From the NCBI RefSeq assembly GCF_044324875.1, contig NZ_CP172185.1: DNA of 64,000 nt, one strand, 5' to 3'. Made by a program: the position numbers and the translations under genes. Position 1 is the first letter of the stretch; every line of letters starts with the position of its first letter. This document shows, piece by piece, positions 44,672-44,876 of this stretch. A model generated the notes under the pieces. That model was not told the DNA's origin. It did no database searches and saw only the letters and a list, made by a program, of their open reading frames with translations. This DNA is from Escherichia coli (lineage in GTDB: Bacteria; Pseudomonadota; Gammaproteobacteria; Enterobacterales; Enterobacteriaceae).

Positions 44672-44876
44672 TCCCCACCACTCCCCACTTTTGCTCCCCA
44701 CTTTTTAAATTCCCCACTTGCTCCCCACCTCGTTTTTTGAGTGAATCTAATGCTTTGTTTTTCATTGCGTTTTTTGCTCCCCACTTTTTTGGATGTATAC
44801 AGGTGGGAAAGTGGGGAATTATGTTTCAATTTTGTTAAATTCCCCACTCTCCCCACTTTTACTACCCACTTTTTAC
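44672..44876. repeat. Iteron array: at least 10 copies of (T)CCCCACTT in both orientations; putative replication origin
   Basis: Copies at 44672, 44682, 44695, 44711, 44721, 44777, 44840, 44850, 44864 plus inverted copies around 44803-44816; non-coding, directly 3' of the replication gene. Confidence 0.75.

Follow-up and report, generated by a model that had tools for sequence, protein, structure and literature searches.

Background

In Gram-negative PICIs the replication origin is the region directly 3' of rep, where two sets of iterons are arranged around an AT-rich region (Fillol-Salom et al. 2018, PMC6092414). The same paper describes that the rep-ori segment of EcCICFT073 drives the replication of a plasmid and that ori or rep mutants fail. 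For the SaPIs, Qiao et al. 2022 (PMC9371898), summarising Ubeda et al., describe Rep as a helicase that loads itself and recognises iterons of 5-6 nt through its C-terminal winged helix; the origin comprises 6-12 iterons just downstream of rep, with an AT-rich centre and some of the iterons opposed, and the Rep proteins are AAA+ motors of SF3 or SF6 with 3'-5' movement. EcCIEDL933, a capsid-forming PICI (cf-PICI), replicates upon induction (10.1101/2022.09.08.507074); neither this preprint nor the EcCIMP1 paper mentions iterons or a cf-PICI origin.

Classical iteron plasmids (Rep_3/pPS10, F, R6K, RK2) use a WH1-WH2 Rep without helicase, iterons of 17-22 bp, DnaA boxes and DnaB loading. In RSF1010, a separate protein, RepC, binds iterons of ~20 bp, and priming takes place at ssi sites, with RepB' as the primase. 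The alpha protein of satellite P4 comprises a primase and an SF3 helicase, and its C-terminal domain binds short repeated octamers at two sites, ori and crr. P4 alpha and its ori are also mentioned in PMC6092414.

Genomic setting

The DNA analysed here (the window, 64 kb in length) is a stretch of E. coli chromosome in which pntA, pntB and a truncated tqsA flank an island. This element, a cf-PICI, has tqsA as its site of insertion, and its core genes lie on the minus strand throughout, in one direction of transcription: int (49408-50637, -), small regulators including an Icd-like one, DUF4222, rep and the candidate origin, followed by an 83-aa gene (phrog_1231), a 101-aa gene, the genes for SSB and a PerC-like regulator, and those for an HK97-type major capsid protein, prohead protease, portal, head-tail connectors, HNH endonuclease, TerS and TerL. 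No tail genes were seen in the gene content of the island, which fits the published description of cf-PICIs (10.1101/2022.09.08.507074). PICIs, which are about 15 kb in size, are recognised by an integrase, one-way transcription and satellite gene content, and the element has these attributes.

The insertion interrupts tqsA (AI-2 transporter; window 50835-51719, +) in its 5' portion, and at a near-identical locus RefSeq calls tqsA incomplete, with the N-terminus absent. A search of 34000-51200 for att direct repeats (16 nt or longer) was negative and thus gave no ends for the island.

The repeat array

The gap between the stop codon of rep (44873-44875) and the next ATG (44669-44671) is 201 bp long and non-coding, with minus-strand genes on both sides. 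A hexamer that reads GTGGGG in the direction of rep occurs in it 11 times (consensus of the repeat motif, AAAAGTGGGGAG), and a twelfth copy is located within the last rep codons. The exact heptamer CCCCACT occurs 11 times in the whole window, seven of these inside 44683-44857. The core GTGGG/CCCAC is found 12 times in 44665-44890, versus 0.39 expected from the remaining window (Poisson P 1.8e-14), and a scan of the whole window gave a maximum of four such cores per 226-bp stretch elsewhere. Nine of the 12 cores are in rep sense (minus strand) and three in the opposite orientation. The GC content is 0.37 across 44700-44850, versus 0.5-0.6 in the flanks. The initial annotation had described a non-coding stretch of ~200 bp with at least ten copies in both orientations, separated by AT-rich spacers and located immediately 3' of a RecA-like/AAA rep gene, and in all of this it was borne out; the adjoining gene encodes a RecA-fold P-loop helicase with a Pfam AAA_25 match. 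Its boundaries of 44672-44876 were good to a few bases, with the array proper slightly shorter.

The shorter extent follows from the twelfth motif copy, which was rejected as an iteron: it is independent of hexamer class in the relatives (see below) and lies within Pro-Leu codons of rep, so it is probably a coding coincidence. With this copy discounted, there are 11 real iterons, and the array spans 44673-44869. The iteron cores are hexamers of the form GTGGG(G/T/A), i.e. a 6-nt core with a repeat period of 9-16 bp; the first is located 5 bp past the rep stop codon, and the array occupies the entire gap to the next gene. The iterons form three groups, separated by two AT-rich spacers (Table 1). 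I4 and I5 face the opposite way to I1-I3, from which the 23-bp spacer separates them, and also to I6 beyond TGTATACA; the dyad core comprises overlapping 22-nt palindromic arms (44778-44799 / 44796-44817); all iterons flanking the 50-bp spacer share one orientation.

Table 1. Features of the candidate origin and of the adjoining genes (positions within the window; I1-I11, iterons numbered from the rep end)
Feature	Position	Strand	Basis or remark
rep-proximal set, three direct iterons	44842-44869	-	sequence and repeat search
I1 (GTGGGT)	44864-44869	-	
I2 (GTGGGG)	44851-44856	-	
I3 (GTGGGG)	44842-44847	-	
AT-rich spacer, 23 bp, between proximal direct iterons and inverted pair	44819-44841	.	stability z ~+1.6
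dyad core (I6, palindrome TGTATACA, inverted I5 and I4)	44779-44816	.	
I4, inverted	44811-44816	plus sense	
I5, inverted	44803-44808	plus sense	
palindrome TGTATACA	44794-44801		
I6	44779-44784	minus sense	
A-rich spacer (rep sense), 50 bp, candidate unwinding region	44729-44778	.	stability z ~+1.45
rep-distal set, five direct iterons	44673-44728	-	
I7	44723-44728	-	
I8	44712-44717	-	
I9	44696-44701	-	
I10	44683-44688	-	
I11	44673-44678	-	
twelfth motif copy in last rep codons	44878-44883	+	probably no iteron
83-aa gene (phrog_1231), at far edge of origin	44420-44671	-	
rep, helicase-initiator, 468 aa	44873-46279	-	ORF
Rep N-domain (residues 1-145)	45845-46279	-	
Rep RecA-fold ATPase (residues 146-395)	45095-45844	-	
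Rep C-terminal winged helix (residues 396-468)	44876-45094	-	predicted
Rep residues 441-454, H2-H3 turn and recognition helix	44918-44959	-	helix predicted
His444 codon	44948-44950	-	

Neither a sigma-70-like promoter nor an intrinsic terminator was found in 44300-45200, and no DnaA box, IHF site or GATC in the repeat region; an Rfam scan of 43500-46500 gave chance-level matches only, outside the repeat region. The single-strand fold of the array (z -1.97) reflects the inverted iterons and indicates no special structure. The AT-rich spacers are only moderately unstable (duplex z ~+1.5), and DNA of lower stability is found elsewhere in the island, e.g. at 49156, 42526 and 48320. A second cluster of the motif was not found in the island.

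The last iterons (GGGGAGTGGTGGGGAATG, 44673-44690) overlap the ribosome-binding region of the downstream gene and abut its ATG. Since there is no terminator between rep and this gene, transcription probably passes through the origin. Two ORFs in this region, 44668-44904 (-) and 44593-44838 (+), were rejected as genes; they are mechanical read-throughs of the repeats and are unannotated in RefSeq.

The Rep protein

The gene product adjoining the array is named 'helicase RepA family protein' in RefSeq. Pfam recognises AAA_25 alone (residues 146-317) and no Rep_3 family domain, and phrog_2850 and helicase-primase PHROGs match in the helicase part only; no primase domain was found in Rep among the Pfam and PHROG matches. 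The NCBIfam search of Rep and its neighbours gave sub-threshold RadA/RadB matches for Rep and none for the small genes. The sole solved sequence relative is the hexameric helicase RepA of RSF1010 (1g8y; E 1.9e-5, residues 155-320), and in a Foldseek search the Rep core matched RSF1010 RepA (1nlf/1g8y, TMt 0.70-0.73), as well as Rad51/RadA/KaiC folds. In an AlphaFold (AF2) model based on 54 homologues (pLDDT 89.6), residues 18-124 form an alpha/beta N-domain and residues 155-386 the RecA-fold core; the C-terminal winged helix (pLDDT 94-98) consists of helices 407-421, 428-437 and 445-454 and a hairpin 458-467. In the alignment of the Rep family D272 and R322 are invariant and K177 nearly so. 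Judged from these comparisons, Rep has a predicted RecA-fold, SF4-like helicase core of the RSF1010 RepA type with intact nucleotide-binding motifs.

Longer relatives of Rep are up to 63% identical in the helicase and winged-helix part and carry an N-terminal zinc-ribbon primase and Toprim. For example, the T7 gp4-like primase-helicase P0002 shares 63% identity with Rep residues 135-464, the C-terminal domain included; in place of the zinc-ribbon primase and Toprim of P0002-type proteins, however, Rep has an unrelated N-domain of 145 aa.

Comparison with known replication systems

The locus shares with E. coli PICIs the host species, the position of the origin 3' of the initiator, short iterons around AT-rich DNA and one-way transcription (PMC6092414). 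The initiator tested for EcCICFT073 is a pri-rep protein (same source), whereas here it would be a primase-less RecA-fold, RepA-like helicase. The likeness to the SaPIs, at the level of sequence, lies in a Rep that would be both helicase and initiator, with a predicted winged helix, and in 5-6-nt iterons 3' of rep; the motors, in contrast, are SF3/SF6 there and RecA-fold, SF4-like here, the proteins are not homologous, and a conserved TA-rich TGTATACA dyad is located between divergent iterons here. Rep may work in the manner of SaPI Rep but, with its RecA-fold core, is not a member of the SaPI Rep family (SF3 or SF6 AAA+); from the SF4-like motor, a polarity opposite to that of SaPI Rep (5'-3') is expected by homology.

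The homologous helicase core (RepA) and an iteron-based origin are common to RSF1010/IncQ and the present locus, but RSF1010 employs a separate iteron binder, RepC, whereas here a single protein carries both the helicase and the DNA-binding domain, and the iteron core is 6 nt long. Satellite P4 likewise encodes a multidomain helicase of its own, though P4 alpha is not homologous to the Rep motor here. The classical iteron-plasmid type is not matched, in view of AAA_25 as the only domain match, the 6-nt core with its period of 9-16 bp, and a repeat region free of DnaA boxes, IHF sites and GATC. At the level of sequence, the position of the array, the number and length of the iterons, the AT-rich spacers and the predicted domains of Rep all agree with a PICI/SaPI rep-ori. 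That plan of an origin is already known; the primase-less SF4-like motor and the dyad core are what differ here.

Conservation of the layout among related elements

For comparison, 85 related loci were assembled, of which 80 came from IMG/VR and five from complete E. coli genomes; the array is kept after rep in all of them but a single deletion variant (L055). The alignment of 16 representative origins gave one common layout. Read in rep sense, the stop codon is followed by three iterons in direct orientation and, beyond an AT spacer that measures 23 bp in the window, by an inverted pair; next come TGTATACA (or TGTATATA / CGTATATA), a single direct iteron, an A-rich stretch of ~50 bp in which GAAAAACA/TGAAACA is conserved, and five further direct iterons that reach the start of the next gene. 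The dyad core is without indels in all 16. Between loci, the hexamer is replaced as a set, in register, at nearly every site, giving a GTGGGG class (35 loci, the window included), a GTGAGG class (35 loci, the O157:H7 elements included) and a GTGGGC class (15 loci), and TGTATACA / TGTATATA / CGTATATA is retained in every hexamer class. Among 57 distinct origins the class switch is clear at I1, I2, I4, I6, I9, I10 and I11, with I6 100% class-pure, and looser at I3, I5, I7 and I8; I3 is less kept in the GTGAGG class. Of 5426 complete E. coli genomes, 1626 match parts of the rep-ori stretch, and only 113 of these match most of it.

The layout extends to Klebsiella. One element of Klebsiella pneumoniae (L086), with a Rep that shares 56% identity across residues 133-468, shows this arrangement, TGTATACA centre included, and has a fourth core, GTGCGGCA (GTGCGG). 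This molecule (CP018459.1, 16,971 bp) and another from K. pneumoniae (L087; NZ_CP069874.1, 15,995 bp) were deposited as small non-mobilizable plasmids; by their gene content they are complete circular cf-PICIs with integrase, rep, capsid and terminase genes. Iteron arrays are found in the equivalent position in cf-PICIs deposited as circular molecules of 16-17 kb. L086 additionally carries a gene annotated as tail tape-measure protein.

Several origins deviate from the common layout. L055 has lost almost the entire array in a deletion bounded by the first and last iterons, the I7-I8 part is missing in L031, and in L020 and L053 the 13-nt proximal unit is present in three to five additional tandem copies. 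These variants suggest repeat-mediated deletion and expansion, and some of the elements may be replication-dead.

Hexamer class and the Rep recognition helix

For 63 distinct, aligned Rep proteins, each column was scored against iteron class. The columns most strongly associated are 444, 442, 445, 446, 450 and 441, and in the structural model columns 441-450 correspond to the H2-H3 turn plus the first half of what is predicted to be the recognition helix; the wing positions 466 and 459 also score high, yet vary within classes. His444 is present in all GTGGGG and GTGGGC loci and Asn444 in all GTGAGG loci, and among the C-terminal positions residue 444 alone is invariant within the GTGGGG and GTGAGG classes while differing between them. 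The GTGGGC class has D441, T442, L445, K446 and A450 throughout. In the closest pair across the GTGGGG and GTGAGG classes (L005 and L063), the last 73 residues differ at His444Asn and Gly454Arg only. In the Klebsiella Rep with the fourth core (L086), a different sequence with a two-residue insertion is located exactly in the 441-450 segment. As a control, the 83-aa downstream gene has no class-diagnostic column, its N-terminus being identical in all three classes.

Pairing of Asn with adenine and of His with guanine are common protein-DNA contact preferences, and Asn444 with A and His444 with G fit these. His444, at the start of the recognition helix, probably reads the fourth base of the hexamer. 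The matching is not absolute: L057, L063 and L067, which have an Asn444 Rep, combine GTGAGG in the proximal and central iterons with GTGGGG at two or three distal sites. From their sequences, these hybrid origins look like the products of recombination within the origin, and they hint that the proximal and central sites matter most.

The C-terminal codons of rep and the repeats are less than 300 bp apart, and linkage could be part of the association. Simple linkage is insufficient, however, because the signal is confined to 441-450 while residues 451-468, which are physically nearer to the repeats, vary freely within classes, and because the His/Asn switch occurs on different backgrounds; Rep is a mosaic, and each iteron class is found on several N-domain/ATPase backbones. 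This co-variation would support a binding specificity of Rep for the hexamers, and does not speak to initiation.

Proposed origin and alternative explanations

We consider it very probable that 44673-44869 is an iteron-type replication origin of the cf-PICI and is bound by the winged helix of the adjacent Rep. This assignment draws on the array and its statistics, its position, the domain make-up of Rep, and the co-variation of hexamer and recognition helix. The arrangement of an iteron-type origin as in phage-inducible islands, which the initial annotation had proposed, agrees well with the cf-PICI layout, the PICI/SaPI literature and the correspondence of Rep and hexamer in the relatives. 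We infer the steps of binding, melting, helicase loading, polarity and replication itself; melting, loading, polarity and priming follow the SaPI and RSF1010 precedents.

After induction and excision of the island, Rep would bind the GTGGGG hexamers via its C-terminal winged helix, and the outer direct arrays (three iterons proximal, five distal) would concentrate it locally. The duplex would open at the dyad core (I6, TGTATACA, I5/I4) and in the AT-rich spacers on either side of it, where Rep may assemble as a ring helicase on the single strands without a separate loader, probably with one ring per direction. The RecA-fold helicase would then unwind the DNA, with primers provided by the host or the helper phage, since Rep is without a primase domain. 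No priming signal was found.

Plasmid iterons have both origin and copy-control roles. Accordingly, the array might bind Rep as a copy-control, incompatibility or autoregulatory site (titration, handcuffing), with initiation elsewhere, e.g. within rep or in a stretch of the island richer in AT; the less stable DNA elsewhere in the island would allow for this, as would a co-variation that speaks to binding specificity and not to initiation. We regard this as improbable, because the island has no second motif cluster, the dyad core and its flanking AT tracts are conserved in all iteron classes, and, according to PMC6092414 and PMC9371898, the equivalent arrangement is the origin in characterised PICIs and SaPIs, where its deletion abolishes replication.

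Slightly less probable still is that the repeats are operators for a regulator other than Rep (the 83-aa protein, or a helper-phage or host factor) that controls the SSB, PerC and capsid genes. The array is indeed located just upstream of these genes, with the last copies in the ribosome-binding region of the next one, and the downstream candidate, phrog_1231, belongs to a family without assigned function; the region, however, has no promoter-like site, and a host factor would leave the class switching tied to Rep residue 444 unexplained. The 83-aa protein itself was rejected as the repeat binder because, with its invariant N-terminus, it has no class-diagnostic residue; the high scores that were seen are artefacts of read-through from an upstream ATG. 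That the repeats are a packaging (cos/pac) signal or functionless, slippage-prone repeats, as the expansion and deletion of units in L020, L053, L055 and L031 might suggest, is very improbable, given that the HNH, TerS and TerL genes are 6-9 kb away with an intergenic region of their own, and that neutral repeats would not hold position, spacing and orientation while the core swaps together with the protein helix.

Implications of the origin assignment

With the array read as the origin, an origin and an initiator would be assigned for a widespread E. coli/Klebsiella family of phage satellites, which aids annotation; the current picture of PICI replication is left unchanged. The most useful new element is the compact correspondence of helix to hexamer, which is directly testable. 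The evidence leaves evenly balanced, in our view, a more far-reaching reading in which Rep is a RecA-fold SF4 self-loading initiator-helicase whose origin specificity resides in a tiny one-helix code, so that cf-PICI replicon groups are switchable. If true, the code would assign His444 to GTGGGG, Asn444 to GTGAGG, and D441/T442/L445/K446/A450 to GTGGGC; a switch of specificity group would take one or a few mutations and a concerted change at ~11 sites, and the pair would represent a natural, readable and re-programmable protein-DNA recognition system that loads around the conserved TGTATACA dyad. The classes also suggest that satellites in one cell may avoid replicon cross-talk through their hexamers.

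Further features of the island

The 157-aa ORF at 42603-43076 (+) lies on the strand opposite to the island genes, between the PerC-like and capsid genes; L001, L086 and L087 have it as well, annotated as hypothetical, and it may be an accessory gene. In 47250-49400, the long ORFs (194 and 361 aa) appear spurious, and the matching stretch in related genomes contains small genes only (Icd-like inhibitor, YlcI/YnfO, HTH regulator); this part of the window may contain extra or degraded sequence.

A near-identical rep-ori is located at a different site in another strain, between phoQ and roxA, and similar replication modules therefore travel with different integrases. The N-domain is the most variable part of Rep (42-100% identity among relatives). 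It also shares 58% identity with the N-terminal ~132 residues of a DUF927 protein in L087 (5809-7944), which is a different Rep type with an origin that uses TGAACCAAC iterons; the N-domain is thus an N-terminal module common to two different motors.
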